Source: a bacterium (lineage in GTDB: Bacteria > Patescibacteriota > Minisyncoccia > UBA6257 > GWB1-50-10). Taken from it: 57,391 bases of DNA. Both the position numbers and the translations under genes were made by a program. The notes under the pieces are model-generated. The model had not been told where the DNA came from. It saw only the letters and a list, made by a program, of their open reading frames with translations, and made no database searches. The stretch lies in the NCBI GenBank assembly GCA_021814835.1, contig JAKAHO010000001.1, positions 2,225-59,615 of the forward strand. Reading direction: 5' to 3'. Shown in pieces: positions 11,452 to 55,420 of the stretch; position 1 is the stretch's first letter, and each line of letters opens with the position of its first letter.

Positions 11452-11478
11452 CCCATCTAAACCTCTAACGGAGTTCAT
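11446..11478 (-). repeat. degenerate/solo copy of the hairpin-element boundary in the yvcK 5' end
   Basis: Minus strand reads ATGAAC-TCCGTTAGAGG-TTTAGAT-GGG-ATGAAA: a left arm with 1 mismatch, then GGGATGAAA, with only about 20 nt between. Confidence 0.6.
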
Positions 11479-32430: not shown

Positions 32431-32444
32431 TCGCCTCAAACGGG

Positions 32445-32624
32445 ATGAAACCCGTTAGAGATTAACCAGTGATGTTTTACACGTACGTATTGCAAAACAA
32501 AAATAAACGTCTCTACACAGGGAAACGCTTTAACAATGGCAAGAGAAAAATTTTTAAAGTCGGGACTAGGCAAACGCTATATCAACAATAGATTAAAGCG
32601 TTTCCTATCTCTAACGGGATGAAA
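32445..32624 (+). mobile_element. start-codon-docked hairpin element E1 (180 bp, largest copy, carries GIY-YIG remnant)
   Basis: ATGAAA-CCCGTTAGAGAT ... ATCTCTAACGGG-ATGAAA, a 12-bp perfect stem. The right-hand ATG (32619) is the start codon of the downstream ORF. Confidence 0.75.
32472..32591 (+). pseudogene. decayed GIY-YIG nuclease ORF (39 codons) inside E1
   Basis: MFYTYVLQNKNKRLYTGKRFNNGKRKIF.. . FYTYVL-x8-LYTG matches the GIY..YIG spacing of small GIY-YIG nucleases. The rest of the domain is missing. Confidence 0.55.
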
Positions 32625-32933
32625 CCGCCGAAAAACGATTCGCGATATTCCTGGACGAGTCACGTCTTCGGAAAAATGTTGCACTACGGAATAGGCGAGG
32701 GGCGCATCCGCCGTATTATCCGCGCGCCCGCACGCGTTGAAGAGGGTGTTGCGGAAAATACCATTGCGGCAATGCAGCCGACAGGCGTAAGGGGCCAGCA
32801 CGAGATGTGGGTGATGTATAAGCTTGAAGGCGGAAAAATTAAAGTCATTACCGCATGGCGCTATCCCGGCAAGAGCTCCGCCCGCGATCCCATACCAAAA
32901 GAAATTCTCGCAGAGGTCCACCAACTTATTTAA
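32619..32933 (+). CDS. hypothetical protein, possibly DUF4258-like
   Basis: WTSHVFGKMLHYGIGEGRIRRIIRAP.. resembles the H-x3-R-x3-RGI-x5-I pattern of DUF4258. This is a weak call. Confidence 0.45.
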   Translation: MKPPKNDSRYSWTSHVFGKMLHYGIGEGRIRRIIRAPARVEEGVAENTIAAMQPTGVRGQHEMWVMYKLEGGKIKVITAWRYPGKSSARDPIPKEILAEVHQLI

Positions 32934-32975
32934 GTTTACTTAATTCGCTATTTTCAGTAGAATTCAATTCGTTAT

Positions 32976-33086
32976 ATGAATCCCGTTAGAAGTGCGGGCG
33001 GGACGAATATGCACAGCCATACATTTCAAAACATGCAAATTATGCCGTCGAAAAATACATTAACCATATACTTCTAACGGGATGAA
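32976..33086 (+). mobile_element. start-codon-docked hairpin element E2 (111 bp)
   Basis: ATGA-ATCCCGTTAGAAGT ... ACTTCTAACGGGAT-GAA, a 14-bp perfect stem. The right-hand ATG (33082) is the ychF start codon. Confidence 0.75.
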
Positions 33087-34077
33087 ACTATCCATCGGCA
33101 TTGTCGGCCTCCCGAACGTAGGGAAATCAACGCTCTTTAAGCTCCTCACGAAGCAGGAGATTTTGATTGCAAACTATCCGTTCGCGACCATCGACCCGAA
33201 TGTCGGCGTAGTACCCGTACCCGACGAACGCCTCGCAAAACTCGCAAAACTTTCCGAATCAAAAAAGATTATTCCCGCAGTAGTCGAATTCTACGATATC
33301 GCGGGCCTTGTGAAAGGCGCATCGGAGGGCGAGGGGCTCGGCAACAAATTCCTGGCGCACATAAGAGAGTGCAAGGCAATTGTGCACGTGCTCCGCTGTT
33401 TCCCGTTGGGAGACATTATCCACGTTGAGGGTTCAACCGACCCCCTGCGCGATTTGGATATCATTAAAACGGAACTTATTTTTAAAGACCTCGAAACGGT
33501 GACGAAACGTTTGGATAAGGCGGAAAAGGAGGCGCGATCAGGAGACAAGAAAGCGATTCAGGAGGCAGGAATACTGAAAGCGGTGAAAGAAACTTTGGAA
33601 AAAGGAAACAATACGCGTGCGCATAACAAAGAAGAAATTGTGCGCGAGTTGGGGCTTCTGACCGCGAAGGAGCAGGTATTCCTTTTGAACGGAAAACCGG
33701 AAGATGTCTCCGAAGAATTGAAAAAGAAAATCGCCGAGGAGGGCGGAGGATACGTGATTATGGATCTCGCGAATGCCGAAAACATCGACGAGCTTATCAA
33801 GAAAGCGTACGAGATTTTGAATCTTATAAGTTTTCTCACCACAGGCGAGGACGAAACGCGCGCATGGACAATAGAGAAAGGCTGGAAAGCTCCGCAGGCG
33901 GCAGGAACCATTCACACCGATTTTGAAAAGACATTTATCCGCGCTGAAGTGGTAAATTACAACGACCTTGTTGCGACAGGCGGCTGGAGCCAGGCAAAAC
34001 AGAAGGGAAAGATGCGCCTTGAAGGAAAGGATTACGTAGTGCAGGACGGCGACGTGATGGTTATCCGCCACGGATAA
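33082..34077 (+). CDS. ychF: Obg-like ATPase YchF, short form
   Basis: GIVGLPNVGKSTLF, ANYPFATIDPNVG and FYDIAGLVKGAS motifs, and a C-terminal TGS-like segment RAWTIEKGWKAPQAAGTIHTDFEKTFIRAEV. Confidence 0.9.
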   Translation: MKLSIGIVGLPNVGKSTLFKLLTKQEILIANYPFATIDPNVGVVPVPDERLAKLAKLSESKKIIPAVVEFYDIAGLVKGASEGEGLGNKFLAHIRECKAIVHVLRCFPLGDIIHVEGSTDPLRDLDIIKTELIFKDLETVTKRLDKAEKEARSGDKKAIQEAGILKAVKETLEKGNNTRAHNKEEIVRELGLLTAKEQVFLLNGKPEDVSEELKKKIAEEGGGYVIMDLANAENIDELIKKAYEILNLISFLTTGEDETRAWTIEKGWKAPQAAGTIHTDFEKTFIRAEVVNYNDLVATGGWSQAKQKGKMRLEGKDYVVQDGDVMVIRHG

Positions 34078-34125
34078 GTTACAATAAAAATATACGGCGT
34101 CCGCAAGCAGTTACGGCGTTTTTAT

Positions 34126-34911
34126 ATGGCCCACTACGAACTTCGCCTCGAATATTTTCAGGGACCGATGGACAAACTCCTCGAGCTTATCGAGGAGAAA
34201 AAACTCGAGGTCTCGCGGCTCAGCTTGGCGGAAGTAACCGACAGTTTTCTTAATTACTTAGACCAATTTAAGGTTGCGCTTGAGGCGGAGCAGGGCGAAG
34301 ACTCGCCGCTGTTTAACGCGCCCCCGGAACTCCTCGCGGACTTTTTAGTGGTTGCCTCGCGTCTCTTGCTCATCAAATCAAAGTCACTGCTCCCGTCGCT
34401 CGCGCTCTCAACGGAAGAAGAATCGGAAATACACGACCTTGAGCACCGCCTGAAGCTCTATCAGGAACTGAAAAAAACGCAGGAGCACGTCCGTACGTTC
34501 TGGGGAGAAACGCCGAAAATGTATGCGCGTGAATTTATGTCCGCGCACGAACCGCTCTTCTATCCGCCCTCAAACGCGACTCCCGCAACACTGCACGACG
34601 TCGCAATGAAAATGGCGGGAGATTTGGCACAGCTTTTCAAGCCGAAAGCTACCGTCAAAAACCAGATAGTAAACCTGCGCGCAAAGATTCAGGAAATTGC
34701 CGACCGTATTATTTCCTCTCCCACCACGTTCTCAAACCTTCACGGCGGAAAGGGAACGAGGAGCGACATTGTGGTGCTCTTCCTTGCGGTGCTCCACCTC
34801 ATCAAGCAACAGCTCGCGGACGTAGAGCAAACGGGTCATTTTGGAGAAATGACGATTGCGAAATCGAAGCCCGCCGAATACAATGAGAGACAAGGAAATG
34901 AATCCCGTTAG
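34126..34911 (+). CDS. scpA: segregation and condensation protein A
   Basis: FQGPMDKLLELIEEKKLEVSRLSLAEVTDSFL. Adjacent to scpB. The last codons and the TAG stop lie inside element E3. Confidence 0.85.
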   Translation: MAHYELRLEYFQGPMDKLLELIEEKKLEVSRLSLAEVTDSFLNYLDQFKVALEAEQGEDSPLFNAPPELLADFLVVASRLLLIKSKSLLPSLALSTEEESEIHDLEHRLKLYQELKKTQEHVRTFWGETPKMYAREFMSAHEPLFYPPSNATPATLHDVAMKMAGDLAQLFKPKATVKNQIVNLRAKIQEIADRIISSPTTFSNLHGGKGTRSDIVVLFLAVLHLIKQQLADVEQTGHFGEMTIAKSKPAEYNERQGNESR

Positions 34912-35001
34912 AGTTTTACAAACATAAAATACTAACAATTCTTGATATAAATATGGCCGTGAAAAATGAAAAAAATAATTGTAAAACTCTAACGGGATGA
35001 A
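34898..35001 (+). mobile_element. start-codon-docked hairpin element E3 (104 bp)
   Basis: ATGA-ATCCCGTTAGAGTTTTACAA ... TTGTAAAACTCTAACGGGAT-GAA, a 20-bp perfect stem. The right-hand ATG (34997) is the scpB start codon. Confidence 0.8.
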
Positions 35002-35608
35002 CATTTTTGCGCAAATTGAAGCATTACTCTTCTACTTCGGAGAGGCAATAGACATTAAAAAAGTGGCGGAATTATTGCATATTTCTCAGGAAGAATGCGA
35101 TAAGGCCGTCGGCGAGTGGGCGACCGCGCTCGCAAATGACCCCGCACGGGGAATAACCGTACTCCGTAAGGAAAATAAGGTTCAGCTCGTCACAAAAACA
35201 GAACTCAAATCAATCGGCGAGTCGATTGTGAAAGACGAGTTCCGCGAACAATTGACGCCCGCAGCCCTTGAAACGCTCTCGCTCATTGCGTACCTCGGGC
35301 CCGTTCCGCGCGCGACCATAGACTACGTCCGCGGCGTGAACTCAAGCTTCACGCTCCGCGCGCTCGTAATGCGCGGACTTGTAGAACGATGCGACGAAAA
35401 AGGACTTTCATTTCAATACCGTGTCACCGAAATGTTTATGAAACATATGGGGCTTGCATCGCTCGCTGAGCTTCCCGAACACAATAAGTACCGTGAAATT
35501 CTACGTGAGTTTGAAGCGCAACTGCACGCGACGAACACCCCTGCAGTTCCTGCGACTCCCGCAGTTGAAGCGCCCCCGACTGAGATAAATCCCGAAGAAC
35601 CGGCATAA
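34997..35608 (+). CDS. scpB: segregation and condensation protein B
   Basis: IEALLFYFGEAIDIKKVAELL, LTPAALETLSLIAYLGPVPRATIDYVRGVNS. Confidence 0.85.
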   Translation: MNIFAQIEALLFYFGEAIDIKKVAELLHISQEECDKAVGEWATALANDPARGITVLRKENKVQLVTKTELKSIGESIVKDEFREQLTPAALETLSLIAYLGPVPRATIDYVRGVNSSFTLRALVMRGLVERCDEKGLSFQYRVTEMFMKHMGLASLAELPEHNKYREILREFEAQLHATNTPAVPATPAVEAPPTEINPEEPA

Positions 35609-36546
35609 TGTCATTACGCATACAAGCACTCATACTCGCATTACTTGTTGTAGGAGCAATCGGCATCACGTATGTGTACGACCGCAGAGCCACGGGATCA
35701 GAACAAAAAGCGGACATTGCAACCATCGTCTCGTCCGAAACGGGTGCGTCTCTTTCGAATACGGGCGAACAGGACCGCAGAAAATTTCCGAAGAGGAAGT
35801 GGGAGATACTCGACCCCGCTGTCGACGCCGAAGCAGTAATGATTGTGTCGCTCGACTCGCAATTTCCTTTTTTTAATTATCAGACGTATAAACAGTGGCC
35901 CATCGCCTCCATTTCTAAACTCATCACCGCAACGGTAGTGGCGGAGGATATCGGCTACTCAAAAAGAATTCCTGTAACTGCAACCGCCATCGCGACCGAA
36001 GGCCTTGCGGGAGACTTCACGAGCGGGGAAGTGTACAAGGCGGACGACCTCGTGAAAATTATGCTCCTTACCTCATCGAACGATGCGGCGACAGCATTCG
36101 AGGAGTCCGTTGGGGGGAGAGAACAGTTTGTGGCGCTTCTTAAGAAGAAGCTTGAAGCGATAGGAATGACGCAAACGACAATGGCGGACGCGAGCGGGCT
36201 TTCGGGTCAAAACCAATCGACCGCAAATGATCTTATAAAACTCTCGAAGTACCTTATGGCGCACCACCCCGAAATTATCGAGTGGACACGGCTGCAAAGT
36301 TATATGGTACAGCCCATAAACGACTCAAAAGCGCGGACCGTGTATAATATAGACGCGTTCGTAACGGAAACGCGGTTTATGGGAGGGAAGACCGGTACGT
36401 CACCCGAGGCACGCGAGAATCTGCTCGCATTCTTCTCATTCGGAGGCGAACGGCTCGCATTCATCATTCTCGGCAGCCACGACAGAAAAGGCGAGACCGA
36501 GAAATTGTTGAACTGGGTCCGCACCGCATACGTATTTAATCAATAA
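35608..36546 (+). CDS. D-alanyl-D-alanine carboxypeptidase (serine peptidase S11, PBP5-like)
   Basis: N-terminal TM helix, SISK (SxxK), SSN (SxN) and KTG motifs. Confidence 0.8.
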   Translation: MSLRIQALILALLVVGAIGITYVYDRRATGSEQKADIATIVSSETGASLSNTGEQDRRKFPKRKWEILDPAVDAEAVMIVSLDSQFPFFNYQTYKQWPIASISKLITATVVAEDIGYSKRIPVTATAIATEGLAGDFTSGEVYKADDLVKIMLLTSSNDAATAFEESVGGREQFVALLKKKLEAIGMTQTTMADASGLSGQNQSTANDLIKLSKYLMAHHPEIIEWTRLQSYMVQPINDSKARTVYNIDAFVTETRFMGGKTGTSPEARENLLAFFSFGGERLAFIILGSHDRKGETEKLLNWVRTAYVFNQ

Positions 36547-36555
36547 CTAATCCAC

Positions 36556-37602
36556 ATGATTGCATTCGAAGCTATTCGCGTACTTATTCTCTTCGCGCTC
36601 GCGTTCGTGGTAGCGCTTATCGCAACGCCCTTTATGGTGCGCGTTTTAAAACTTCTGAATGTTAAGAAAACAAATATCCGCGATGAAAAAAGTGCGCCAA
36701 TTTTTTACCAATTCCACAAAAAGAAGGCGGACACGCCGACGATGGGGGGCGTCATTATCTGGGGCACGGTAATAGGCCTCGCGCTTCTCTTCTGGATTCT
36801 GCAGAGCGTCTTTAACGGCTTTGCGAACTATTTCAATTTCGTAAGCCGTTCAGAAACCTACCTTCCGCTCGCGGCGCTCTTCTTCGCGGCGGTAGTGGGC
36901 CTTATGGATGATATTTTCGGCATTATGGGGCGCGGTCCGCACGGGGGAGGGCTTAGCGTTCCGCAAAAGCTCGGTCTTTATACGCTTGTTTCCGCAGTGG
37001 GCGCATGGTGGTTCTATTTCCGCCTCAGCTGGGACGTGCTCTATATTCCGTTCTACGGCAACATTTCGATGGGGTGGTACTACATTCCGTTCTTTATGTT
37101 CATCCTTATCGCTACGGCATTTTCAACGAATGAAACCGATGGGTTGGATGGTCTTGCGGGCGGTACGCTCTTTTTCGCATTCGGCGCGCTCGCCATCATC
37201 TCGTTTGCCACACACCGCTTTGACCTCGCAGCAATGAATGCGGTCATCCTTGGCGCGCTCCTCGCATTCCTCTGGTTCAATATCTACCCTGCGCGCTTCT
37301 TTATGGGCGACACGGGGTCAATGTCCCTCGGTATTACGCTCGGCGTAATGGTGATGCTCACGAATACCGCACTCTTTTTGCCGTTCTTTGGCTCGATTCT
37401 TATCTTCGAATCCATCACGGTCATCATTCAGATGTTGAGTAAAAAGTTCCGCAAGAAAAAAGTATTCCTCTCGACGCCTATTCACCATCATTTCGAAGCG
37501 CTCGGCTGGCCCGAAAGCCAGATTACGATGCGTTTCTGGATTATCACTATCGTAACGACAACACTCGGCCTCGCGCTCTTCTTCCTCGCGCGGTTCTTCT
37601 AG
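36556..37602 (+). CDS. mraY: phospho-N-acetylmuramoyl-pentapeptide transferase
   Basis: KKADTPTMGG, NETDGLDGLAGG and FMGDTGSMSLG motifs, 10 TM helices. Confidence 0.9.
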   Translation: MIAFEAIRVLILFALAFVVALIATPFMVRVLKLLNVKKTNIRDEKSAPIFYQFHKKKADTPTMGGVIIWGTVIGLALLFWILQSVFNGFANYFNFVSRSETYLPLAALFFAAVVGLMDDIFGIMGRGPHGGGLSVPQKLGLYTLVSAVGAWWFYFRLSWDVLYIPFYGNISMGWYYIPFFMFILIATAFSTNETDGLDGLAGGTLFFAFGALAIISFATHRFDLAAMNAVILGALLAFLWFNIYPARFFMGDTGSMSLGITLGVMVMLTNTALFLPFFGSILIFESITVIIQMLSKKFRKKKVFLSTPIHHHFEALGWPESQITMRFWIITIVTTTLGLALFFLARFF

Positions 37603-37650
37603 TACTCCACAGCGCGCAATAGACTCAAATAGAGTAAAATAAGTAGTGGG

Positions 37651-39147
37651 ATGACCACGCTTATTAAGAACGGTCTTGTATATGACGGAACGGGCACTGC
37701 GCCCGTAAAAAAGGATATTTTGATACGCGGAGAACGCATTGCAAAATGCGGTACTATATCGCGTACGCACGCAGAGACCGTCATTGACGCAACGGGCGCG
37801 GTAATAACGCCCGGGTTCATTGATGTAAACGCCCACTCGGACCACTATATGTCGCTCTTCTATGAGCCGCACCAAGAAGACTTGGTGCGTCAGGGCATTA
37901 CGACCATAATCGGCGGTAATTGCGGAGTTTCGCTTGCGCCCCTTGTGGACGGCTCGCTCCGCACCATTCACGAATGGGGGAATGAAACGCATACAAACGT
38001 AAATTGGACGAGCGTGAAGCAATTCTATGCGATGCTGAAGCGCAGGGGACTCGGCATAAACTTCGGCATGCTTGCGGGGCACACGACCATCCGCGAAGCG
38101 ATTACCCGCGGGAAATTCCGCGATCTTACGGAAAGCGAAATCAGACTTTTTAAACACGTGCTTGCGCGCGCAATAAAAGACGGCGCGCTTGGGCTTTCAA
38201 CGGGGCTCGGCCATACGCACGCGGAACGCACGCCGCACCACGAGCTTGTGGAGCTCGCAAAAGTTGTTGCAGCGCATAAGGGTATATATGCAACGCACCT
38301 GCGCGATGTGCGCGACGAACTGCTCGCCTCAATTGAGGAAACAATAATGCTCGCCTCGGAAACTGGGGCAAATGTGCAGATTCTCCACCTGCAACCCCTG
38401 AAATCACACCGCGAACAGTACACGGAGGCGGCGCGAATGATTCAGAAAGAATCTGCGCGTCTTCATATCAACTTTGATGTGAATCCCTTTGATACGGCGA
38501 CGATGCTTATCTACGAACTCCTGCCGCGCTGGTTCCGCGAAGAACGGCTCGAGACAATGCATAAGAATATAAAAGTTCCGCATGCGCGTGAACGCCTCAT
38601 TGCACACTTTAAAGCAACCGCGCCGCGCGACTGTATGCTCGCGCACATACCGCACCCCTCGCTCAAATTCCTCGAAGGGCGCTCCATCCGCGAGTTCGGC
38701 ACACGAAGCGGCATTTCATATGAAGAAGCGATTCTGAAAATTATGGATATCACGAACCTACGCGCCACTGTTTCGGCAAAAATAGTGGACGCTGAGTTGC
38801 GCGACGCATATATCGCGCACCCGAATTCGTTTATCGCAACAAACAGCGCGAGCTTCAGCAAAAAAGAATTTAAATATATTCCGAGCACCGACACCTACCC
38901 CGCACTTCTGCGTATGGCGGCGGAGTCAGAAACTATCCGTACCGAACACGCAATCGAGAAGTCAACATCGCTGCCTGCGAAAAAATACGGTATCGCGAAA
39001 CGCGGTGAAATCGGCGAAGGCAATTTCGCCGACATTGTGGTGCATGAAAATTTCCGTCCCGCGCACGTGTTTGTAAACGGCACATGTGTGCTCGATGGCG
39101 GGGAACTGGTAAAACACTTGAAGGGCGCGATTATTAAACGAGCGTAA
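37651..39147 (+). CDS. amidohydrolase-family protein, D-aminoacylase (N-acyl-D-amino-acid deacylase)-like
   Basis: LIKNGLVYDGTG..VIDATGAVITPGFIDVNAHSDHY, followed by an Amidohydro_3-like remainder. Confidence 0.7.
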   Translation: MTTLIKNGLVYDGTGTAPVKKDILIRGERIAKCGTISRTHAETVIDATGAVITPGFIDVNAHSDHYMSLFYEPHQEDLVRQGITTIIGGNCGVSLAPLVDGSLRTIHEWGNETHTNVNWTSVKQFYAMLKRRGLGINFGMLAGHTTIREAITRGKFRDLTESEIRLFKHVLARAIKDGALGLSTGLGHTHAERTPHHELVELAKVVAAHKGIYATHLRDVRDELLASIEETIMLASETGANVQILHLQPLKSHREQYTEAARMIQKESARLHINFDVNPFDTATMLIYELLPRWFREERLETMHKNIKVPHARERLIAHFKATAPRDCMLAHIPHPSLKFLEGRSIREFGTRSGISYEEAILKIMDITNLRATVSAKIVDAELRDAYIAHPNSFIATNSASFSKKEFKYIPSTDTYPALLRMAAESETIRTEHAIEKSTSLPAKKYGIAKRGEIGEGNFADIVVHENFRPAHVFVNGTCVLDGGELVKHLKGAIIKRA

Positions 39148-39150
39148 CCA

Positions 39151-40287: not shown

Positions 40288-40297
40288 TTTTCCGACA

Positions 40298-40400
40298 ATG
40301 AATCCCGTGAGAGTTTTGGAAACATAAATATACGAAAAACAAAAATATTTTAAAGGTTTGATAAACGAAAATGATAATTGTAAAACTCTAACGGGATGAA
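40298..40400 (+). mobile_element. start-codon-docked hairpin element E4 (103 bp)
   Basis: ATGA-ATCCCGTGAGAGTTTTGGAA ... TTGTAAAACTCTAACGGGAT-GAA, a 20-position stem with 2 mismatches and 1 G-T pair. The right-hand ATG (40396) is the murG start codon. Confidence 0.8.
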
Positions 40401-41520: not shown

Positions 41521-41542
41521 TGACTAATACTGCATTTTAGGG

Positions 41543-41548
41543 TATACT
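41543..41548 (+). promoter_or_regulatory. -10 box TATACT, leaderless geometry
   Basis: 6 nt between TATACT and gltX ATG 41555. Confidence 0.45.
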
Positions 41549-41554
41549 AGCCCT

Positions 41555-42970
41555 ATGGATGTCAGAGTTCGCTTTGCGCCCTCGCCAACAGGTTTTTTGC
41601 ACATCGGCGGGGTCCGTACCGCACTTTTTAACTGGCTTTTTGCCCGACACGAAGGCGGTAAGTTCATACTGAGAATTGAGGATACCGACAAACAGCGTTC
41701 TGAACGCCGTTTTGAGGATGACATATTGAAGAACTTGGAGTGGCTTGGTATTACGTGGGACGAGCCTCCTGCGCGCCAGAGTGAACGCCTCGAAATATAC
41801 GAGAAAAACTTAAAGAACCTTTTGGACAGCCATAAGGCGTATTACTGTTTCTGTACTCCCGAAGAACTTGAAGACGAGTATCAGGCGCAGATGTCGCAGG
41901 GCCTCGTTCCCAAATACAGCGGGAAATGCCGTTCACTTTCGGAAGAGGAGCGCGCAGTAAAACAACTGAAAAATCCCGGCGTCATCCGCTTTAGAATGCG
42001 CGACCACGTCGTGTCGTTCTCCGACATGATTCGCGGCAAGGTGGAGTTCAACACCGCGCTTTTCGGGGACATCATCATCGCAAAGTCATTGCGCGAGCCT
42101 CTCTACAATTTTGCCTCAGTCATCGACGATGCCGATATGAAAATCAGCCATGTCATCCGCGGAGAAGAACATCTCTCCAATACCCCGAAGCAAATAATGC
42201 TTCAGGAAGCGCTTGATTTGCCCACGCCGAAATATGCACACCTTCCGCTCATTTTGGGTGCCGACAAAAAGAAACTTTCAAAGCGTGTGCTCACGAACTC
42301 GCTGAATGATTACCGCGCGCAGGGCTTTTTGCCGAGCGCAATTATCAATTTCCTTATGCTGCTTGGCTGGCATCCTTCTGACGACAAAGAAGTATTCACG
42401 GTGCCGGAGATGATTGCCGCGTTTTCAATCAAACGCGTGCAGAAAGCGGGCGCAATCTACAACCCCGAAAAATTGGACTGGTTTAACGCAATGCATATAA
42501 GGCAATTGAGCGACGTGGAACTTGCACAATATTTGAAACCATTTATCCCCGAGGAGTGGGCGAGCGACAAGAACAGGCTTCTGCGCGCGATTGCAGTCAC
42601 CAAAGAACGGATGAAGAGCCTTACCGATTTTCAAAAAGAAGCTGGCTTTGTGTTCGCGGTAGCGGAATATCCCGCAACGATGCTCGTATGGAAGTCGGCT
42701 ACAGTTCCGCAAACGATAACGCGTCTTGAATATGTGCACGCGCTTCTCACAAAAGACGATGGCGTTGTATTTCCGTCGGAACACACGGCGACCGCGCTTA
42801 TGGAATACGCAAATAAAGAGGGGAGAGGCGATGTCCTCTGGCCGCTCCGCGTTGCGCTCTCGGGGCGCGAGGCGTCGCCCGGCCCCGCTGAACTTCTCCG
42901 TATCTTAGGAAAAGATGAATCGGTCCGTCGCATTGCAGATGCAGTACAAAAACTGAAACACACGCTCTAA
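41555..42970 (+). CDS. gltX: glutamyl-tRNA synthetase
   Basis: RFAPSPTGFLHIGGVRTALFNW (HIGH motif) and KLSKR (KMSKS motif). Confidence 0.9.
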   Translation: MDVRVRFAPSPTGFLHIGGVRTALFNWLFARHEGGKFILRIEDTDKQRSERRFEDDILKNLEWLGITWDEPPARQSERLEIYEKNLKNLLDSHKAYYCFCTPEELEDEYQAQMSQGLVPKYSGKCRSLSEEERAVKQLKNPGVIRFRMRDHVVSFSDMIRGKVEFNTALFGDIIIAKSLREPLYNFASVIDDADMKISHVIRGEEHLSNTPKQIMLQEALDLPTPKYAHLPLILGADKKKLSKRVLTNSLNDYRAQGFLPSAIINFLMLLGWHPSDDKEVFTVPEMIAAFSIKRVQKAGAIYNPEKLDWFNAMHIRQLSDVELAQYLKPFIPEEWASDKNRLLRAIAVTKERMKSLTDFQKEAGFVFAVAEYPATMLVWKSATVPQTITRLEYVHALLTKDDGVVFPSEHTATALMEYANKEGRGDVLWPLRVALSGREASPGPAELLRILGKDESVRRIADAVQKLKHTL

Positions 42971-42976
42971 TCATTT

Positions 42977-44317
42977 ATGCGCACGCACGTAGCACAATTT
43001 GCATTGTGGGTGGTACTTATCGCGCTCCTTGGGGGCACGTTGCGCGCGTACGCGGCGAATGAGTTGCTCGCACAAGCGGTTCAGGGCGCGTCAATCACCG
43101 AACTTCAAAAACACATCGAGGAAAAAAGCGCCGAGCTCCAACAAATTCAGGCGCAGAAAGAGTCGCTCCAAAAAACAATTGAAACAGTCAACAAATCGGG
43201 CGACAGCATCAAAAAAGATATTCAGCTCTACAACACGAACATCAACCAGCTGAATCTTTCCATTAAAGCGAACACGGTAAACATTGAGAAGCTCGGCTAT
43301 GAAATAGATTCGCTAAGTCAGGAAATCGTGAAAATCCGCGACACGGTAACCGCGCAAAAAGCCACTATCAGCCAACTTTTTACCGAGCTTCAACAGCGCG
43401 AAAACGAAACATTATTGGCGCGTCTTTTGCGCAGTGAAACGCTGAGCCAGAGCGTTTCGGAAATACAAAATATCAGCTCGCTCAACTCTTCATTGCTTGA
43501 GAATATCGACAAACTCAAACAACTCGAAGTCGACTACACAAATAAAATCGACGACAACAAAAAGAAAAAGGTGACTAAGGTGGTGCAGACCAACAACCTT
43601 ATGAACCTTCAGCAGATTACGCAGGAACAAAAACTCGAAAAACAAAAACTGCTCGAACAGACAAAAAGCGTTGAGCAGTATTATCAGCAACAGCTCGAAG
43701 AACTGAATAAAAAACAGGGCGAGATTGATTCCGTCATCGAAGAAATTGAACAAAAAATGCGCGCGTCATTCGATCCGACATTATTGCCGCTGAAACGCCC
43801 CGGCGTACTCGGCTTTCCCGTAGACGACGTGTATCTCACGCAGTGTTATGGCCGTACGCCGTTTGCGGTGAAGACATATAGAACAAAAACGCATAACGGC
43901 ATGGACTTCGGCGGTCCAATCGGCACGCCGCTGCTCGCAGCCGACGACGGAAAAGTTATTAAAGTAGGCAACAACGACCGCGGCACATCGCGCTGGAACC
44001 GTTATCAATACGGAAAATATGTGCTCATTCAGTATGGCGATAATCTTTCGACACTCTACGGCCATCTCTCAAAATATAACGTGAAAGAAGGGGATACTGT
44101 CGCGCGCGGCGACGTCGTGGGCTATATGGGCAACACGGGCTACTCGTTCGGCACGCACGTGCATATGACTGTCTTCTGGGCGCCGAGCGTTCAGTTCAAG
44201 GCGGTGCCTCCGGCGGCGGGCGTAGTACCCGTCGGCGTGACGATTAACCCGTTGGATTATCTTCCGAGTATTTTTGGAATGCCCCGCGCGGGAGATTCGG
44301 GTTGCCCAAGATCATAA
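42977..44317 (+). CDS. M23-family metallopeptidase with N-terminal coiled coil (EnvC-like)
   Basis: Signal peptide, about 250 aa of coiled coil, HNGMDFGGPIGTPL..GNTGYSFGTHVHMTV. Confidence 0.85.
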   Translation: MRTHVAQFALWVVLIALLGGTLRAYAANELLAQAVQGASITELQKHIEEKSAELQQIQAQKESLQKTIETVNKSGDSIKKDIQLYNTNINQLNLSIKANTVNIEKLGYEIDSLSQEIVKIRDTVTAQKATISQLFTELQQRENETLLARLLRSETLSQSVSEIQNISSLNSSLLENIDKLKQLEVDYTNKIDDNKKKKVTKVVQTNNLMNLQQITQEQKLEKQKLLEQTKSVEQYYQQQLEELNKKQGEIDSVIEEIEQKMRASFDPTLLPLKRPGVLGFPVDDVYLTQCYGRTPFAVKTYRTKTHNGMDFGGPIGTPLLAADDGKVIKVGNNDRGTSRWNRYQYGKYVLIQYGDNLSTLYGHLSKYNVKEGDTVARGDVVGYMGNTGYSFGTHVHMTVFWAPSVQFKAVPPAAGVVPVGVTINPLDYLPSIFGMPRAGDSGCPRS

Positions 44318-44333
44318 GTAGTATAATAAACAG

Positions 44334-44765
44334 ATGAAACGCTCTGTAACACGCCAATCGGCATATGTACTGGCGGGTTTTATTGCAATTATAGCCCTTT
44401 CAGGCGTGGTATCGGCCCAAGACACATCTGCGCCTCAAAACACCCAAGGAACGCAGAATTTAGCGATTCCGGGGCCACTTATGGACGCTTGGAACTATGC
44501 AATAGACCTCGGAAATCAGCTTATAACCAAACTCCCGAAATACTCGCTCATTAACGAAAAAAACGCCAGTGAAACCATCCAGCAAGGAGTTAAATCGTTC
44601 AATTACAACTCGTTAAACGACTTATTTAGCGGAATGGCGACATGGTTCAACAACAACGTAAATCTCGCGAATATGCCGGGATTCATAAATGATGCGGCGG
44701 CAGTTTTGCGCCAGCTCGTAGAAATGGTAGCGCAGGCAATAAAGATGGTAGTGGGGTATCTATAA
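44334..44765 (+). CDS. hypothetical secreted protein
   Basis: Signal peptide ..ALSGVVSAQ. No recognisable domain. Confidence 0.5.
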   Translation: MKRSVTRQSAYVLAGFIAIIALSGVVSAQDTSAPQNTQGTQNLAIPGPLMDAWNYAIDLGNQLITKLPKYSLINEKNASETIQQGVKSFNYNSLNDLFSGMATWFNNNVNLANMPGFINDAAAVLRQLVEMVAQAIKMVVGYL

Positions 44766-44867
44766 ATAGTTAAGACGCTCACAAAATATTTCCGTGAACA
44801 CGTAAGCGCGTGCGCAGTAAGAGCCGTTTTGCGATGAAGGCTCGGTTACGTCGCAACAACGGCGATG

Positions 44868-44918
44868 ATCTTTTACGACATGACTGGGGCCAAAAGACAT
44901 AGTCATGTCGTAAAAGAT
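44868..44918. repeat. perfect 18-bp inverted repeat with 15-nt loop
   Basis: ATCTTTTACGACATGACT-ggggccaaaagacat-AGTCATGTCGTAAAAGAT. No T-run on either side. Confidence 0.9.
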
Positions 44919-45074
44919 ATATTGTGCGACAGATGCAAATCTAGCATTATCCTTGTTTTCACACTTCCCCCGTCCATATTCGGAGGTATTTTTTTAAACT
45001 CCCTTATTCCCCGCATCACTCCTATTTTCATTCTTATAAATATTTATATTTCCGATACAAGTGTATTTTTTCTC

Positions 45075-45131
45075 CATTTGAAAATTGAAAATTTGTCATT
45101 GGAAATTCAAAAACGCCTAAAGGCGTTTTTG
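45075..45131 (+). repeat. CATTTGAAAATTGAAAATTTGTCATT motif followed by a terminator-like hairpin
   Basis: The motif recurs at 5760-5784 (plus strand) and 5705-5723 (inverted). The hairpin is CAAAAACGCC/GGCGTTTTTG at 45108-45131. Confidence 0.7.
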
Positions 45132-45260
45132 AATATAACCCTCCCCTCCCGACCCCTCTCCGAGGTACCTTCGCACGACAATTTGGACGCCTTAATGTCA
45201 ACCTGCCGTAGAGGTCGACTAACTGGTATCATAAACAGGAATTCTACTAATTATTTTTTT

Positions 45261-46028
45261 ATGAACGAGTTTAAATCTGTCGACGAGTTTAAGGCGGGGT
45301 GCGGATACGACATAGACGGCGCGTGGTACCCGCGCGTCACGCGCATTTTGGAAATTAAATCGAAGCCCGCCCTCTACCGTTTCTACGGAAAGATGTCGAG
45401 CTTTGCTGAGGGTGAACGGATAAAACAGCAGTCGGCCACCGAGGGCACAATGGTGCACGAGGCAGTTGAGAATATTTTTTTGAACCGCGACGAGCCCGTT
45501 CCCCCGACGATAGAAGCATCCATCGCGGCATTCAAAAATTTTATTAAGGAAAATAAAATTCATGTGGACGCCGAGTACGTTGAGAAGCGTCTCGCAAGCC
45601 ACGAGCACCGCTATGCGGGCACTATCGACGCGATTGCGTTAATCGGCGGAAAGCTGGGCATCCTCGATATCAAAACTTCGCAGGAAATTTACCGCGATTA
45701 TAACCTCCAGACCGCCGCCTACCTTTATGCAATGAAGCCCGTAGTAAAGAACCTCGAGACACGCTGGATACTCCGCATCGACCAGAGCCAATCCTGCCTT
45801 TTTTGCGGCGCAAAGATGCGCAGTAAGGGCGGTAAACGCCAGTTAAAAACGCAGTGGAATGACCCCATGCAACGTTCGTGCCAGCACGAATGGGGCGCAA
45901 TGCAGGGACACATCGAACTAAAAGAATTCCCCCACTGGGAGAATGATTTCGAAGCATTTTTGGGAGCAAAAAAACTCTGGGAATGGGAAAATGCGGACTG
46001 GTTGACCCGCGTCGGATATCTGAAATAG
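45261..46028 (+). CDS. PD-(D/E)XK nuclease, Cas4/RecB-like, with Cys cluster
   Basis: GTIDAI..(x11)..LDIKT forms the D..(D/E)xK motif. QEIYRDYNLQTAAY gives a QxxxY motif. One N-terminal Cys plus C-terminal CLFC..C. Start trimmed to ATG 45261; the upstream 396 nt of the track ORF contains terminator hairpins. Confidence 0.6.
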   Translation: MNEFKSVDEFKAGCGYDIDGAWYPRVTRILEIKSKPALYRFYGKMSSFAEGERIKQQSATEGTMVHEAVENIFLNRDEPVPPTIEASIAAFKNFIKENKIHVDAEYVEKRLASHEHRYAGTIDAIALIGGKLGILDIKTSQEIYRDYNLQTAAYLYAMKPVVKNLETRWILRIDQSQSCLFCGAKMRSKGGKRQLKTQWNDPMQRSCQHEWGAMQGHIELKEFPHWENDFEAFLGAKKLWEWENADWLTRVGYLK

Positions 46029-46087
46029 CAATCGGTATTTTCCCCGCATAATGCGTAATAATTTCTGCATTTTACGGTCTGAATATA

Positions 46088-46096
46088 TGGTATAAT
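46088..46096 (+). promoter_or_regulatory. extended -10 promoter TGgTATAAT for the pilus operon
   Basis: Lies about 58 nt upstream of pilB ATG 46155. Confidence 0.55.
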
Positions 46097-46154
46097 ACAT
46101 ATACACAGACGCCGAAATTGCGGAGCGGAAGCGCGTGGAACGCAGCATCGATTT

Positions 46155-47399
46155 ATGCCCCTAAAAGAAGAAAAAACAAAGATAGACGAGCTTCTCAAGA
46201 AAGGCCCCGGCCTTTCGATTATTGATCTTATCGACCTGCTTATTAAGTTCGCCTACGATAGCCGCGCGTCGGATATTCATATCGACCCCGAAGACAAAGA
46301 CCTTCGTGTCCGCCTCCGCATCGACGGCATTTTAAACGAATCATTTATATTCCCGAAAGAAATTCAGTCTGAGGTTACCACGCGCATCAAAGTGCTCTCC
46401 GGTCTCCGCACCGACGAACACCAAGCGGCGCAAGACGGCCGTTTCAGGGTGCAAATGAAGGGTGAGGGCCCCGTGGACCTCCGCGTATCTATCGCACCCA
46501 CGTATTACGGAGAAAATTGCGTAATGCGCCTCCTCGTGGAAAAAGCTGAAAAGTTTACGCTCGGCACGCTCGGCTTCAACGAAGTCGACCGCAAAAAAAT
46601 TGAACACGCGATTACAAAACCGTACGGCATGATTTTGGTCACCGGCCCCACGGGTTCCGGTAAAACAACCACGCTCTATACGGTATTGAAAACGCTCAAC
46701 ACAAAAGAAGTGTCTATTATTACGATCGAAGACCCTATTGAGTACGCCATTGAGGGCATCGACCAGATTCAGGCAAACCCGCGCACAGGACTCACCTTTG
46801 CGTCAGGATTGCGCTCTATTTTGAGGCAAGACCCGAATATCATCATGGTGGGTGAAATCCGCGATGAGGAAACCGCGGGCATCGCGGTAAATGCCGCACT
46901 TACGGGCCACCTTCTCCTCTCGACGCTCCACACAAACGACGCGGCGACTTCTCTCCCCCGCCTTCTTGATATGAAAATCGAACCGTTTCTTATCGCCTCA
47001 ACGGTGAACGTCGTTGTAGGTCAGCGTCTCGTCCGAAGAATTTGTCAGGATTGCAAAACAAAGAAGACGCTCTCCGCCCCCGAACTGCAAAGCCTAAAAG
47101 AAGTGATTGTGCAGCAGGGCCTCGATAAATACAAAGATATTTCAAAATCAACGCCGTTCTATTACGGCAAGGGCTGCGATGTCTGCAACGGTTCGGGCTA
47201 CTACGGCCGTATCGGTATTCACGAAGTGCTGGACGTCGACGATGACATCCGCAAAGCGCTCGTGAGAAAAGCGGACGCCTCAGAAATCAAAAAAATTGCG
47301 CTCAGCAAAGGCATGACAACGATGATTGAGGACGGATTCGGAAAAGCGCTTGAGGGCGTAACGACGATTGAAGAAGTCCTGAGAGTCATTCACGAATAA
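46155..47399 (+). CDS. pilB: type IV pilus assembly ATPase PilB/GspE, short form
   Basis: Walker A GPTGSGKTTTLY, Asp box, Walker B, His box, and a C-terminal tetra-Cys module CQDC..CDVC. Confidence 0.9.
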   Translation: MPLKEEKTKIDELLKKGPGLSIIDLIDLLIKFAYDSRASDIHIDPEDKDLRVRLRIDGILNESFIFPKEIQSEVTTRIKVLSGLRTDEHQAAQDGRFRVQMKGEGPVDLRVSIAPTYYGENCVMRLLVEKAEKFTLGTLGFNEVDRKKIEHAITKPYGMILVTGPTGSGKTTTLYTVLKTLNTKEVSIITIEDPIEYAIEGIDQIQANPRTGLTFASGLRSILRQDPNIIMVGEIRDEETAGIAVNAALTGHLLLSTLHTNDAATSLPRLLDMKIEPFLIASTVNVVVGQRLVRRICQDCKTKKTLSAPELQSLKEVIVQQGLDKYKDISKSTPFYYGKGCDVCNGSGYYGRIGIHEVLDVDDDIRKALVRKADASEIKKIALSKGMTTMIEDGFGKALEGVTTIEEVLRVIHE

Positions 47400-47407
47400 C
47401 CTACCCG

Positions 47408-47510
47408 ATGAATCCCGTTAGAGTTTTTATAAGCACGACATATTAACAACTAAAAAAAGAAAAAAGTGATAATTAAAAAAATAATAATTGTAAAACTCTA
47501 ACGGGATGAA
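47408..47510 (+). mobile_element. start-codon-docked hairpin element E5 (103 bp)
   Basis: ATGA-ATCCCGTTAGAGTTTT ... AAAACTCTAACGGGAT-GAA, a 16-bp perfect stem. The right-hand ATG (47506) is the pilC start codon. Confidence 0.8.
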
Positions 47511-48564: not shown

Positions 48565-48592
48565 ATTGTACACGCAGCGCGCCTTACCACAC

Positions 48593-52778: not shown

Positions 52779-52781
52779 TCT

Positions 52782-54251: not shown

Positions 54252-54297
54252 GTATGGGGCTTATCCACACGCACTTTCTCTCAAGGGGCGTAAAATC

Positions 54298-54306
54298 TGA
54301 TATAAT
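54298..54306 (+). promoter_or_regulatory. extended -10 promoter TGaTATAAT for the pilin gene
   Basis: Lies 121 nt upstream of ATG 54428. Confidence 0.55.
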
Positions 54307-54427
54307 TAAAGGCGTAAACGTCCATTACTATTGCTGAATTTCCGTGTGAGCAAGAGTAAGGCGGGAGAAAGGTCGAGTAAACGGCAATTACAGCAACAGA
54401 AAATAATCAGAATCTAATACAAATCAA

Positions 54428-54877: not shown

Positions 54878-54897
54878 ATTCTAGCGAAAGAGCAGAT

Positions 54898-55418: not shown

Positions 55419-55420
55419 AT

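Follow-up and report, generated by a model that had tools for sequence, protein, structure and literature searches.

Hairpin elements on start codons of a Patescibacteria genome as probable copies of a tiny mobile element with a GIY-YIG nuclease gene

Introduction

Why does the same kind of hairpin end exactly on the start codon of one gene after another in this stretch of bacterial DNA? The window, that is, the whole stretch of 57,391 nucleotides that was analysed (57 kb), was originally described as carrying an unrecognised family of such hairpins, bracketed by a short direct repeat that looked like a target-site duplication. It is probable that the hairpins are copies of a tiny mobile element with a GIY-YIG nuclease gene, whose insertion at TGAA regenerates the start codon of the host gene.

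Copies in the window and nearby DNA

The five copies of the original prediction are all present, each reading ATGAA(T/A)CCCGT(T/G)AGA ... TCTAACGGGATGAA, and in all five the terminal ATG is indeed the first codon of the downstream gene. E1 (32445..32623, plus strand; 179 nt, 12-bp stem), whose end had been placed at 32624, precedes a 104-aa ORF formerly labelled 'DUF4258-like'; a Pfam search with this ORF gives no match, and the label is unsupported. The other four are plus-strand miniatures. E2 (32976..33086; arm subtype AGAAGT/ACTTCT) is docked on the start codon of ychF (33082), E3 (34898..35001; 20-bp stem) on that of scpB (34997), E4 (40298..40400) on that of murG (40396), and E5 (47408..47510) on that of pilC (47506), which encodes a T2SS-F/PilC protein. 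Stem lengths are as they had been given. The degenerate copy suspected at 11446-11478 is also real: E6 (11446..11478, minus strand) is a 33-nt remnant, ATGAA-C-TCCGTTAGAGG...GATGGG-ATGAA, ahead of a gene assigned to the CofD family by Pfam. Its full minus-strand reading, ATGAA-C-TCCGTTAGAGGTTTAGATGGG-ATGAA, lies in frame before the MKKVVVVGGG start. ATGAA thus stands on both sides of all six window copies, and the right-hand ATG is the host gene start. Directly upstream of E1, the one-mismatch arm match CCTCAAACGGG (32434..32444, plus strand) is a remnant right arm, probably left by an earlier element whose junction (ATGAA) later served E1.

The exact 9-mers CCCGTTAGA and TCTAACGGG are found in elements only across the 57 kb searched. 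With up to 3 mismatches allowed, the 14-mer TCTAACGGGATGAA has 11 matches, all within or directly adjoining elements, versus 4.6 +/- 2.1 in shuffles. The cluster is not limited to 15 kb as had been thought, for three further copies lie in flanking DNA of the same genome: a decayed one and two docked on the start codons of divIC and secY. Of the 9 copies in this genome, 8 are docked; two of the genes concerned, cofD and secY, are on the minus strand. A scan of other genomes for the pattern yields at least 120 loci, mostly in Patescibacteria. Coincidence or an assembly artefact, for which no supporting point was found, is extremely improbable given these loci in other genomes, motif counts above those of shuffled sequence and the recurrence of the same copy in independent assemblies. 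Most plausibly, E2-E5 and the remnant E6 are gene-less miniature derivatives of a very small mobile element, and E1 is derived from the complete, autonomous element by an internal deletion.

Empty sites in related genomes

Syntenic relatives with 86, 84, 74 and 66% MurG identity have a single ATGAA at ychF, scpB, murG and pilC sites where the window has ATGAA-element-ATGAA. The E2 site is empty in L147 and L152, and so is the E3 site, with an ATGA overlap of scpA and scpB. Likewise, the E4 site is empty in L147, L152 and L154, where the ftsW TGA overlaps or abuts the murG ATG, and the E5 site in L147, L149 and L154. These empty sites establish the copies as insertions, and the suspected target-site duplication is borne out. 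The E1 site is covered by L152 alone (74% MurG identity), where it is empty and has a plain ATG start without ATGAA. Its host ORF is three codons longer there (MPGLKPPKND versus MKPPKND in the window), and from this one relative it appears that the window ATG of the 104-aa ORF was made by the E1 junction.

One relative, L149, has an occupied murG site with exact boundaries (ctcatc-ATGAA-T-CCCG...CGGG-ATGAA-CATTCGC) and carries further copies absent from the window. The element at its scpB start is of another subfamily: its arms differ, and when whole elements are aligned it is only 55-58% identical to E3-E5. This occupation by distinct subfamilies indicates independent insertions at the same nucleotide. 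In the present genome, copies may be old and immobile, because their interiors are only 55-70% identical (74-79% for E3-E5 as whole elements) and E4 is identical in three same-species contigs.

Stem structure and covariation

The stem begins one base earlier than originally described, since the T/A before CCCG has its pairing partner in the A that follows GGG. This shortens the minimal duplication to TGAA and assigns the A of the right-hand ATG to the element. The proposed 5-nt ATGAA duplication stands as a duplication but not in length and sequence: for the family it is 4 bp with the consensus TNNA, and TGAA in this genome. Among the matches listed, 69 of 123 copies are flanked by a perfect direct repeat of 4 nt (TGAA 18, TAAA 17, TCAA 13).

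E2-E5 fold far better than shuffled sequences (z = -3.8 to -7.7), in agreement with the predicted hairpins, and the interiors of E3-E5 contain 18-21% G+C versus about 50% in the genome. Across the family, 13 bp of the stem are conserved. The arm covariation noticed in five copies holds in a larger alignment, in which three variable stem positions are 89-93% Watson-Crick versus 29-51% in shuffles (122 distinct copies among the matches listed). Among these matches, 93% have a Watson-Crick pair immediately outside CCCG/CGGG. At positions 11 and 12 the bases pair in 92% and 89%, each of the four pair types being represented, and further out pairing hardly differs from random. G-T pairs make up 1-2% at the covarying positions of the matches listed, a scarcity that points to selection on DNA pairing and not on an RNA hairpin alone.

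The complete unit and its nuclease gene

Complete copies of about 275-277 nt consist of one long hairpin, with the stem base Y-CCCGTTAGAG-NN / NN-CTCTAACGGG-R and a gene in the loop. Their only ORF, found between the arms in L111, L124 and L134, encodes a predicted single-domain GIY-YIG nuclease of 86 aa. The right arm codes for its last four residues, SLTG, and the stop comes from the duplicated target (GGR-TGA or GGR-TAA). GIY-YIG (PF01541) is the sole Pfam domain of the protein, an alignment of 13 sequences shows no variation at residues Y6, Y17, R27, H31 and E51, and the nearest solved structures are UPF0213 proteins. Homologues number 2932 at E <= 1e-5, and at E <= 1e-3 the matches comprise 6236 clusters of 50% identity. 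The best 120 of the 2932 are 72-100% identical, and 79 of these 120 have the exact FLSLTG end. Decayed fragments of the ORF persist in E1, in L088 and in one L149 copy. E1 keeps codons 1-18 (32472-32522) and 60-86 (32539-32619); its C-terminal 27 aa are 89% identical (tblastn, E = 4e-11) with the SLTG end, and the 104-aa host ORF starts at an ATG (32619) that shares bases with the stop TGA (32620-32622). Moreover, L030 contains two more GIY-YIG subfamilies with unrelated arms, the same layout and flanking TTGA or TAG repeats.

The same units could be ordinary MITE-type elements moved by an unrelated transposase, for instance of the DDE type, with the GIY-YIG gene as a passenger or free-standing homing endonuclease in the loop. 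Terminal inverted repeats with a short target duplication are the classical DDE signature, GIY-YIG enzymes are without known strand-transfer chemistry, and an intact nuclease gene was not found in the ~72 kb of this genome searched. Nevertheless, this explanation is unlikely, given that the complete ~277-nt units carry the GIY-YIG ORF and nothing else, and that the ORF is physically fused to the right arm, whose SLTG ends those 79 homologues. Furthermore, each of the three nuclease subfamilies has its own arms in the same layout, the pattern expected if an enzyme co-evolves with its own site. Among the at least 120 loci listed, these arms never enclose a longer element; L119, considered as such a case, was rejected as two separate copies.

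Relation to known systems

Among known systems, the closest is Ssn with its NTS/dRS3/SRM repeats (Chenal et al., Nat Commun 2025; PMC11893778), the same kind of nuclease-hairpin pairing. As described there, Ssn enzymes are single-domain GIY-YIG proteins of ~94 aa whose binding to a hairpin repeat requires ssDNA and whose cut falls a few nucleotides upstream of the repeat; ssn genes are flanked by the repeat, and IS-like mobility is offered as a hypothesis only. Both systems have a single-domain GIY-YIG protein of ~90 aa, a gene bracketed by the hairpin repeat and many gene-less copies, mostly outside coding sequence. They also share a CCCG stem base and a TCA-type 5' flank (NTS GTCAT-TCCCGCG; here, on the reverse strand, TTCAT-CCCGTTAG), and the reported Ssn cut lies where the duplication boundary lies in the present family. 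In contrast, the Ssn gene is flanked by complete 20-50-nt hairpins, while here the gene is enclosed by a single hairpin and shares sequence with its right arm. The available text of PMC11893778 mentions neither Patescibacteria nor start codons, and reports no target duplications or empty sites for Ssn/NTS. The family is thus unrecognised insofar as an Rfam search with the hairpins matches no family and the published SRM motif does not match them, but the kind of pairing was published in 2025.

REP/REPIN-RAYT and IS200/IS605 likewise have short palindromes whose single-strand hairpins are recognised, a small single-gene partner enzyme, insertion oriented by a short asymmetric target and gene-less copies that outnumber the gene. 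Their enzymes are HUH Y1 transposases with an HUH tyrosine instead of GIY-YIG, and IS200/IS605 has no target duplication and a separate subterminal hairpin at each end, unlike the one end-to-end stem here. Bacterial MITEs such as Correia (Neisseria), RUP, BOX, ERIC and Nezha resemble the present elements in their ~100 nt, terminal inverted repeats, target duplication, co-transcription with neighbour genes and origin as internal-deletion derivatives of an autonomous element, E1 being such a deletion here. However, their autonomous partners, where known, are DDE insertion sequences of at least ~1 kb, the arms here are unrelated in sequence, and start-codon regeneration is described for none of them. 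Rickettsia palindromic elements (RPE) are also tolerated in coding regions, as are in-frame copies of the present family within prepilin leader sequences of other genomes (L007, L015), but they differ in sequence and have no known partner enzyme. In PMC11893778, Rickettsia is listed as having more than 300 SRM elements, and the available text does not link these to RPEs. GIY-YIG homing endonucleases (I-TevI, Seg proteins) have the same catalytic domain and are likewise selfish. Unlike the present nuclease, they have an extra DNA-binding domain, spread to one cognate allele by double-strand-break repair, and lack a terminal hairpin, target duplication and gene-less derivatives.

Proposed insertion and start-codon regeneration

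Insertion duplicates the 4-bp target (TNNA; TGAA in this lineage). The element ends in a purine that pairs with its first base, and the right junction R-TG-AA therefore forms a new ATG or GTG before whatever came after the target. Flank differences in L074 (left ATGAAC, right GTGAAC) and L033 (left ATGAGC, right GTGAGC) show that the element contributes the first base of the new start codon. The left target copy preserves the upstream stop, as TGA in one frame and through an arm-internal TAG in another; scpA upstream of E3 now stops at such a TAG in the left arm (34909-34911). Where the target is a start codon or an ATGA stop/start overlap, both neighbour genes therefore remain intact, which would explain why surviving copies lie exactly on start codons.

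The nuclease may act like Ssn enzymes, recognising the stem base once the arms fold in ssDNA; its binding and cutting substrate would be the single-stranded hairpin Y-CCCGTTAGAGNN...NNCTCTAACGGG-R, nicked a few bases outside the stem. GIY-YIG enzymes hydrolyse DNA without a covalent intermediate, so the strand-transfer step would need to be supplied by the host, whose replication or repair would finish the process. Gene-less copies would rely on mobilisation in trans. After insertion, the native ribosome site may drive a short leader peptide, MNPVR..., whose translation would open the stem and free the regenerated start codon. In E2, a leader ORF begins at the left ATG, crosses the element and ends 4 nt short of the ychF start codon. 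Complete copies have the stop of the nuclease ORF overlapping the host ATG (ATGA), which would allow direct translational coupling.

It is quite unlikely that the hairpins are now host-serving cis elements instead of active parasites, tuning translational coupling or mRNA stability, or marking incoming transforming DNA as proposed for Neisseria NTS. Such a role would suit copies that are old, as their interior identity suggests, and that all lie, where read in this genome, at or beside gene boundaries, nearly all in essential-gene operons. On the sense strand, the interior is rich in A in 7 of 7 copies, one of which belongs to a minus-strand gene. Additionally, Ssn/NTS is reported to modulate natural transformation (PMC11893778), and type IV pilus genes of Patescibacteria adjoin several copies. 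However, close relatives without elements at the same junctions use plain ATGA overlaps, so these sites can do without an element. Between genomes the interiors show no conservation, and the near absence of G-T pairs speaks against an RNA-only constraint. A host role would also leave the arrival of the copies unexplained and is itself compatible with a mobile origin.

Docking across the family

Among the matches listed from other genomes, an ORF of at least 60 codons starts exactly at the junction in 29 of 44 TGA-flanked (RTGA) copies, whereas an ORF start at the junction is found in only 34 of 124 copies overall. On these counts, start-codon docking is a trait of TGA-flanked copies and not of the whole family, for which it had been proposed. 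Because about 60% of the tolerable window sites for a 5-nt ATGAA target are start codons, docking in 6 of 6 window copies is only marginally unusual (p about 0.05) and could be largely a product of selection. Copies elsewhere include some within prepilin leaders, flanked by GTTTAC, and some in intergenic DNA, flanked by GTTGAC or GTCAAG; tandem and nested copies occur in L007, L020, L004, L048, L058 and L106.

Hairpin copies in the window and elsewhere in the genome

Judged by sequence comparison, the elements are mobile hairpins with a target duplication and a structure-constrained stem, and they belong among the recently recognised small GIY-YIG nucleases with cognate hairpins. The observation made in the original prediction was confirmed, and its interpretation was partly supported. 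Direct reading of the sequence places the five copies where they had been reported, all on the plus strand, namely E1 (32445–32623), E2 (32976–33086), E3 (34898–35001), E4 (40298–40400) and E5 (47408–47510); the end of E1, previously put at 32624, is actually 32623. Each copy starts with ATGAA(T/A)CCCGT(T/G)AGA and ends with TCTAACGGGATGAA. The terminal ATG is indeed the first codon of the downstream gene, which encodes a 104-aa ORF (E1), YchF (E2), ScpB (E3), MurG (E4) or a T2SS-F/PilC protein (E5). The label 'DUF4258-like' given to the 104-aa ORF is unsupported, a Pfam match being absent. Exact 9-mers of the arms are confined to E1–E5 within the 57 kb, and the right-end 14-mer gives, with up to three mismatches, 11 matches, all inside or beside elements, compared with 4.6 ± 2.1 in shuffled sequences.

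On RNA folding, the ends pair from position 5 to form the stem AT-CCCGTTAGAG.../...CTCTAACGGG-AT, so that AUGA is left over at the 5' end and GAA at the 3' end. The folds of E2–E5 have z-scores of −3.8 to −7.7, and the stem lengths reported earlier agree with the computed ones. The interiors are AT-rich as described, with 18–21% G+C in E3–E5 against ~50% in the genome. The degenerate copy suspected at 11446–11478 (E6) is real; its minus strand reads ATGAA-C-TCCGTTAGAGGTTTAGATGGG-ATGAA and is in frame with the CofD-family gene that follows it and begins MKKVVVVGGG. Additionally, a relic right arm (CTCAAACGGG) is found immediately upstream of E1. About 55 nt from the E6 remnant there is a SAM riboswitch (Rfam RF00162, 55.6 bits; 11533–11642, plus strand), followed downstream by the gene of S-adenosylmethionine synthetase (11708–12652).

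In the ~72 kb of this genome that are readable, nine copies are present. Three of them lie outside the window, at 1835–1900 and 1966–2071 of contig L157 and at 14231–14324 (minus strand) of contig L158. One of these is docked on the start codon of divIC, one on that of the minus-strand secY, and one is decayed; the left ATGA of the decayed copy overlaps the stop of a 70-aa ORF, and the ATGAA of its right flank is lost.

Occupied and empty sites in relatives

Syntenic relatives were found through the protein database and contig look-ups. Their contigs L147, L149, L152 and L154 carry MurG homologues of 86, 84, 74 and 66% identity, respectively, and their junctions were aligned with the window. 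The bracketing ATGAA repeats had been read as a likely target-site duplication, and orthologous empty sites were found in these relatives at all five positions. The murG site (E4) is empty in L147, L152 and L154 and occupied in the window and L149, and the scpB site (E3) is empty in L147 and L152 and occupied in the window and, by a different subfamily, in L149. The sites occupied in the window at pilC (E5), ychF (E2) and the 104-aa ORF (E1) are empty in L147, L149 and L154, in L147 and L152, and in L152, respectively. At the empty murG sites, the ftsW stop overlaps or abuts the murG ATG (...ctcatcATGAACATTCGC in L147). The occupied site of L149 reads ctcatc-ATGAA-T-CCCG...CGGG-ATGAA-CATTCGC, and comparison of its junctions with the empty sites of the relatives shows that the insertion is exact and duplicates (A)TGAA.

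At the empty scpB sites, scpA and scpB overlap as ATGA. The element at this site in L149 (1–121) has the arms CCCGTTAGAAGC / GCTTCTAACGGG. In whole-element alignments it is only 55–58% identical to E3–E5, and E3, E4, E5 and the L149 murG copy share 74–79% identity with one another. Since the L149 scpB element is so dissimilar and of another subfamily, the scpB insertions appear independent; the presence of two subfamilies at one nucleotide of the scpB start codon suggests recurrent insertion, or else a cassette-like replacement. At the E1 site, the ORF of L152 starts with MPGLKPPKND and that of the window, three codons shorter, with MKPPKND, so that the window ATG looks to have been made by the junction, as judged from this one relative at 74% MurG identity.

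Copy number differs sharply among the relatives, and L149 has additional copies absent from the window. No presence/absence polymorphism of E4 was seen in the same-species contigs (L002 and L003 included), all three of which carry it. A metagenome scan for MurG relatives yielded three distant loci only, one of which has a plain ftsW-murG junction but is not close enough to serve as an empty site.

Anatomy and spread of the family

When a single genome from each species was scanned with the pattern CCCGTTAGAG-N(50–80)-CTCTAACGGG, at least 120 stretches were obtained. The matches listed are mostly from Patescibacteria of many classes, with a few from MAGs labelled Omnitrophota, Planctomycetota, Nitrospirota and Proteobacteria. 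With TGAA as the duplication, the hairpin and its flanks can be written as NTGAA-Y-CCCGTTAGAGNN-loop-NNCTCTAACGGG-R-TGAAN; between genomes, the interiors are unrelated and the flanks are mostly other than ATGAA. An exact 4-nt direct repeat lies just outside a single extra base pair in 69 of 123 copies, the duplication being TGAA/TTCA in 18, TAAA/TTTA in 17 and TCAA/TTGA in 13, with the consensus TNNA. Any link between arm subtype and duplication type is at most weak (AGAGAA arms occur together with TAAA in 11 of 25 copies).

Across these 123 copies, the base before CCCG is paired with the base after CGGG in 93% (C-G, T-A or G-C). Moreover, stem positions 11 and 12 are paired in 92% and 89%, with all four pair types, compared with 29–51% in shuffles, and pairing past position 12 is near random. 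These pairing statistics define the conserved object as a 13-bp stem. The arm covariation originally claimed from five copies holds in the larger set, but it is not specific to RNA; G-T pairs make up just 1–2% at the covarying positions, and the pattern fits DNA pairing on both strands. Where the flanks are unequal they differ systematically, as in the loci L074 (left ATGAAC, right GTGAAC) and L033 (left ATGAGC, right GTGAGC). Thus, the element proper is Y-CCCG...CGGG-R plus a 4-bp duplication, and the element itself supplies the initial base of the right-hand 'start codon'.

Tandem or nested copies occur at the loci L007, L020, L004, L048, L058 and L106, and the inner copy of L058 is again flanked by TGAA. 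Terminal inverted repeats, target-site duplication and empty sites in relatives, the marks of an insertion sequence, are all present in the family. A search for long arm-bounded elements gave one candidate, L119 (793 nt), which proved to be two separate copies. No miniature copies were found in viral contigs, where the sole 'full-length' pattern match was due to chance and lay inside a gene that looks sigma-factor-like.

The gene-bearing form and its nuclease

The interior of E1 reads MFYTYVLQN..., as does that of locus L088, and a search for ORFs beginning just inside a left arm found the locus L111. The L111 unit of 277 nt consists of an arm, 17 nt and an 87-codon ORF, whose last codons, TCT CTA ACG GGG (SLTG), are the right arm and whose stop TGA lies in the flank. 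The product of 86 aa has GIY-YIG (PF01541) as its sole domain. As this is the only ORF, no recognised transposase class (DDE, HUH, serine, tyrosine or Cas1) was found in the element. In L111 and the further loci L124 and L134, the left arm stands 8–20 nt upstream of the ATG, and the final codons are those of the right arm. The latter two have the L111-type layout between co-directional host genes (bacA/GIY/folD and asnS-like/GIY/ftsX-like), with stop codons in the flank (GGG-TTAA and GGG-GTAA).

At E ≤ 1e-5, 2932 homologues of the L111 protein were found, of which the best 120 are 72–100% identical and mostly 86 aa long; 79 of these 120 have exactly FLSLTG as the C-terminus. In an exhaustive search of cluster representatives, 6236 clusters matched at E ≤ 1e-3, falling to 1110 when the threshold was tightened to E ≤ 1e-10. 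Catalytic-type Tyr, Tyr, Arg, His and Glu residues are invariant in an alignment of 13 sequences. The nearest solved structures are the UPF0213 proteins 1zg2 (E = 4.5e-9) and 1ywl, and tblastn against plasmid and phage collections returned distant matches only, either UPF0213/YazA-type or unnamed.

According to tblastn, E1 keeps residues 1–18 and 60–86 of the nuclease, the C-terminal part being 89% identical (E = 4e-11). Since only these residues are kept, E1 is an internal-deletion derivative, internal deletion being the classical route to a miniature element. Both a candidate autonomous partner with shared ends (L111, L124 and L134) and a deletion intermediate (E1) are thus at hand. Furthermore, locus L030 holds two more distant small GIY-YIG genes (reverse strand; about 3600–3960 and 3180–3560) with the unrelated arms CTCTTCACCCC/GGGGTGAAGAG and CCCCGCACCTATTAAGCAC/GTGCTTGATAGGTGCGGGG. 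Each is enclosed by its own inverted repeat and flanked by short direct repeats, TTGA or TAG. The layout of a gene inside its own hairpin is therefore general across subfamilies, and each enzyme seems to co-vary with its hairpin.

Docking on start codons

Exact docking on start codons had been proposed as a property of the elements. It holds in this genome for eight of the nine readable copies, including those at the minus-strand cofD in the window and at divIC and the minus-strand secY just outside it, but it is not a family property. In other genomes, an ORF of at least 60 codons starts exactly at the junction in 34 of 124 copies (29 of the 44 flanked by RTGA). Strict start-codon specificity is contradicted by copies found elsewhere, both intergenic and in prepilin genes, the latter being the GTTTAC-flanked ones. 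GTTTAC copies stand just before the FTLIE motif at the loci L007 (2943–3104 and 6122–6199), L015 (6335–6424 and about 6919), L053 and L081, where the arm-encoded SLTG and the duplicated TTT-AC rebuild the G/FT prepilin-peptidase site. ORFs beginning inside these elements encode a replacement leader, e.g. MSSLTG/FTLIEVLL, and the 96-nt insert of L015 is stop-free in the pilin reading frame.

Since the last base of the element is a purine and TGAA is duplicated, the right junction always reads RTGAA, which can serve as a start codon. At the left junction, TGA is retained in one frame and the TAG of the arm in another; the scpA stop is now the TAG within the left arm of E3. At the empty sites of relatives, an ATGA overlap between the adjacent genes is common, and insertion there keeps both the upstream stop and the downstream start. 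Docking follows from a TGAA target together with ends that rebuild the start codon.

The window has 689 TGAA/TTCA sites, 52 of them intergenic. Outside the elements, ATGAA occurs 163 times, including 14 ORF starts that carry no element and 12 intergenic sites. As estimated from these counts, six of six copies at start codons would be unlikely for a 4-nt target with purifying selection (p about 4e-4) and marginal for a 5-nt ATGAA target (p about 0.05). The counts are compatible with either targeting or selection. All seven copies that can be compared, the one at the minus-strand secY among them, have a sense strand that is A-rich in the interior, and family-wide 14 of 18 TGAA copies are A-rich on the TGAA strand (p = 0.03). 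This bias fits either an insertion oriented by an asymmetric target that is read on a single strand or selection acting in transcripts.

Comparison with known systems

The family had been described as unrecognised. It matches nothing in Rfam, at gathering thresholds for the elements or at E ≤ 1 over 32400–35100, but a similar system has been published, namely the Ssn nucleases with their NTS/SRM hairpin repeats (PMC11893778). In the relevant passages of that 2025 paper, Ssn enzymes are single-domain GIY-YIG proteins of ~94 aa, NTS-ssnA-NTS is likened to an insertion sequence with domestication proposed, and the insertion-sequence-like nature of nucleases and repeats is left as a hypothesis (PMC11893778). 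Patescibacteria and start codons go unmentioned in the paper, and the passages drawn on here report no target duplications or empty sites (PMC11893778). Both systems have a single-domain GIY-YIG protein of ~90–100 aa (here 86 aa, PF01541 only), a likeness in domain and length. In both, a hairpin repeat flanks the nuclease gene; the Ssn gene lies between complete short hairpins, whereas here, in a variant layout, the flanks are the two arms of one hairpin that encloses the gene. Many gene-less copies, mostly outside coding sequence, are also common to both (here nine in ~72 kb and at least 120 loci elsewhere). The published SRM motif, HGTCWYN(0-2)YYVSBRHN(0-5)WNVSBRGN(0-2)RNCYNB, has zero matches in the window; the minimal hairpins of the present family do not match it on either strand, and an NTS positive control does.

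IS200/IS605 and REP-RAYT systems are comparable in their working, but they rely on HUH (Y1) enzymes and separate subterminal hairpins and make no target duplication, whereas the present element has a GIY-YIG enzyme, a 4-bp duplication and one end-to-end stem. The gene-less copies resemble Correia-type MITEs, but the partners of the latter are DDE insertion sequences. Integron attC sites carry RYYYAAC in the 5' arm and GTTRRRY in the 3' arm; the arm order found here is the reverse on both strands (5' GTTAGAG...CTCTAAC 3'), which rules out an attC site. Hammerhead and other small ribozymes are likewise ruled out, their core motifs and any Rfam match being absent. Literature searches covering the arm sequence, GIY-YIG transposons, MITEs and CPR repeats returned nothing nearer than the Ssn paper, and no mention of the arm sequence in such a context.

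Proposed mechanism and significance

The comparisons establish that insertion duplicates 4 bp, that the stem of 13 bp is constrained by its structure, that a dedicated small GIY-YIG gene lies within the hairpin, that deletion derivatives exist, and that stop and start codons are regenerated. It is a tentative though real possibility that the ~277-bp unit (two 13-nt arms and an 86-codon GIY-YIG gene) is an autonomous transposon, moving via ssDNA hairpin recognition, with ends that regenerate the upstream stop and the downstream start. By analogy with Ssn enzymes, the nuclease would recognise the base of the stem in ssDNA and nick a few bases outside; the duplication boundary is 5 nt outside CCCG. 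Integration by a hydrolytic nuclease would require a contribution from host replication or repair.

After insertion, the native ribosome site would drive a short leader peptide. The leader ORFs read MNPVRVLQT, MNPVRVLET, MNPVRVFISTTY and MKPVRD, each then reaching a stop, and that of E2 has 33 codons and ends 4 nt before the ychF ATG. Leader translation would presumably open the stem and so make the regenerated ATG accessible. The host ATG of complete copies overlaps the TGA of the nuclease ORF. Promoter-like and terminator-like sites are not enriched over 32300–48000. Programmed translational bypass between the two ATGAA copies was also considered, and it is needless given that the empty sites mark the elements as insertions.

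If autonomous, the unit would, to our knowledge, be smaller than any other autonomous element described and the first in prokaryotes to rely on a GIY-YIG hydrolytic nuclease for mobility. If the nuclease is the mobility enzyme, the unit would represent a new mechanistic class of prokaryotic transposon and would lower the minimum size recorded for autonomous elements. The stop/start-regenerating ends would then let the element colonise gene junctions of minimal, gene-dense genomes, and codon regeneration offers a testable account of parasite persistence in genomes that are ~93% coding. Comparative genomics also provides, for an Ssn-like family, hallmarks that the Ssn proposal lacked, namely exact empty sites, duplication of a 4-bp target, copies in tandem or nested in one another, and deletion intermediates between gene-bearing and gene-less forms. 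Additionally, at least 6000 clusters of putative hairpin-directed nucleases with readable cognate sites could be useful for the ssDNA tools proposed for Ssn. Annotation is affected as well, as insertions shift or extend called gene starts; scpA ends inside E3, an upstream start was called for cofD, and the 104-aa ORF is shorter by three codons than that of L152.

Other repeats in the window

Coordinate arithmetic puts the end of the NCBI contig DAIERX010000002.1 (116,807 bp) near window position 46,812, and 46813–57391 is matched by a separate ENA contig; the window therefore seems to derive from another or longer assembly of this organism. A tRNA-Gln(TTG) gene (22638–22709) is followed 47 nt on by a 55-nt stretch (22757–22811) that repeats its 3' part exactly, a repeat of the type left by an element that integrates into tRNA genes, with almost nothing between the copies. 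Just upstream of this region, a 92-nt direct repeat of 71% identity (21760–21851 and 22385–22476, 625 nt apart) has in both copies a GGGGC...GCCCC hairpin inside and TTTGTCAAT at the end. A 59-nt direct repeat of 92% identity (17869–17927 and 18055–18113, 186 nt apart) probably reflects a repeat internal to coding sequence.
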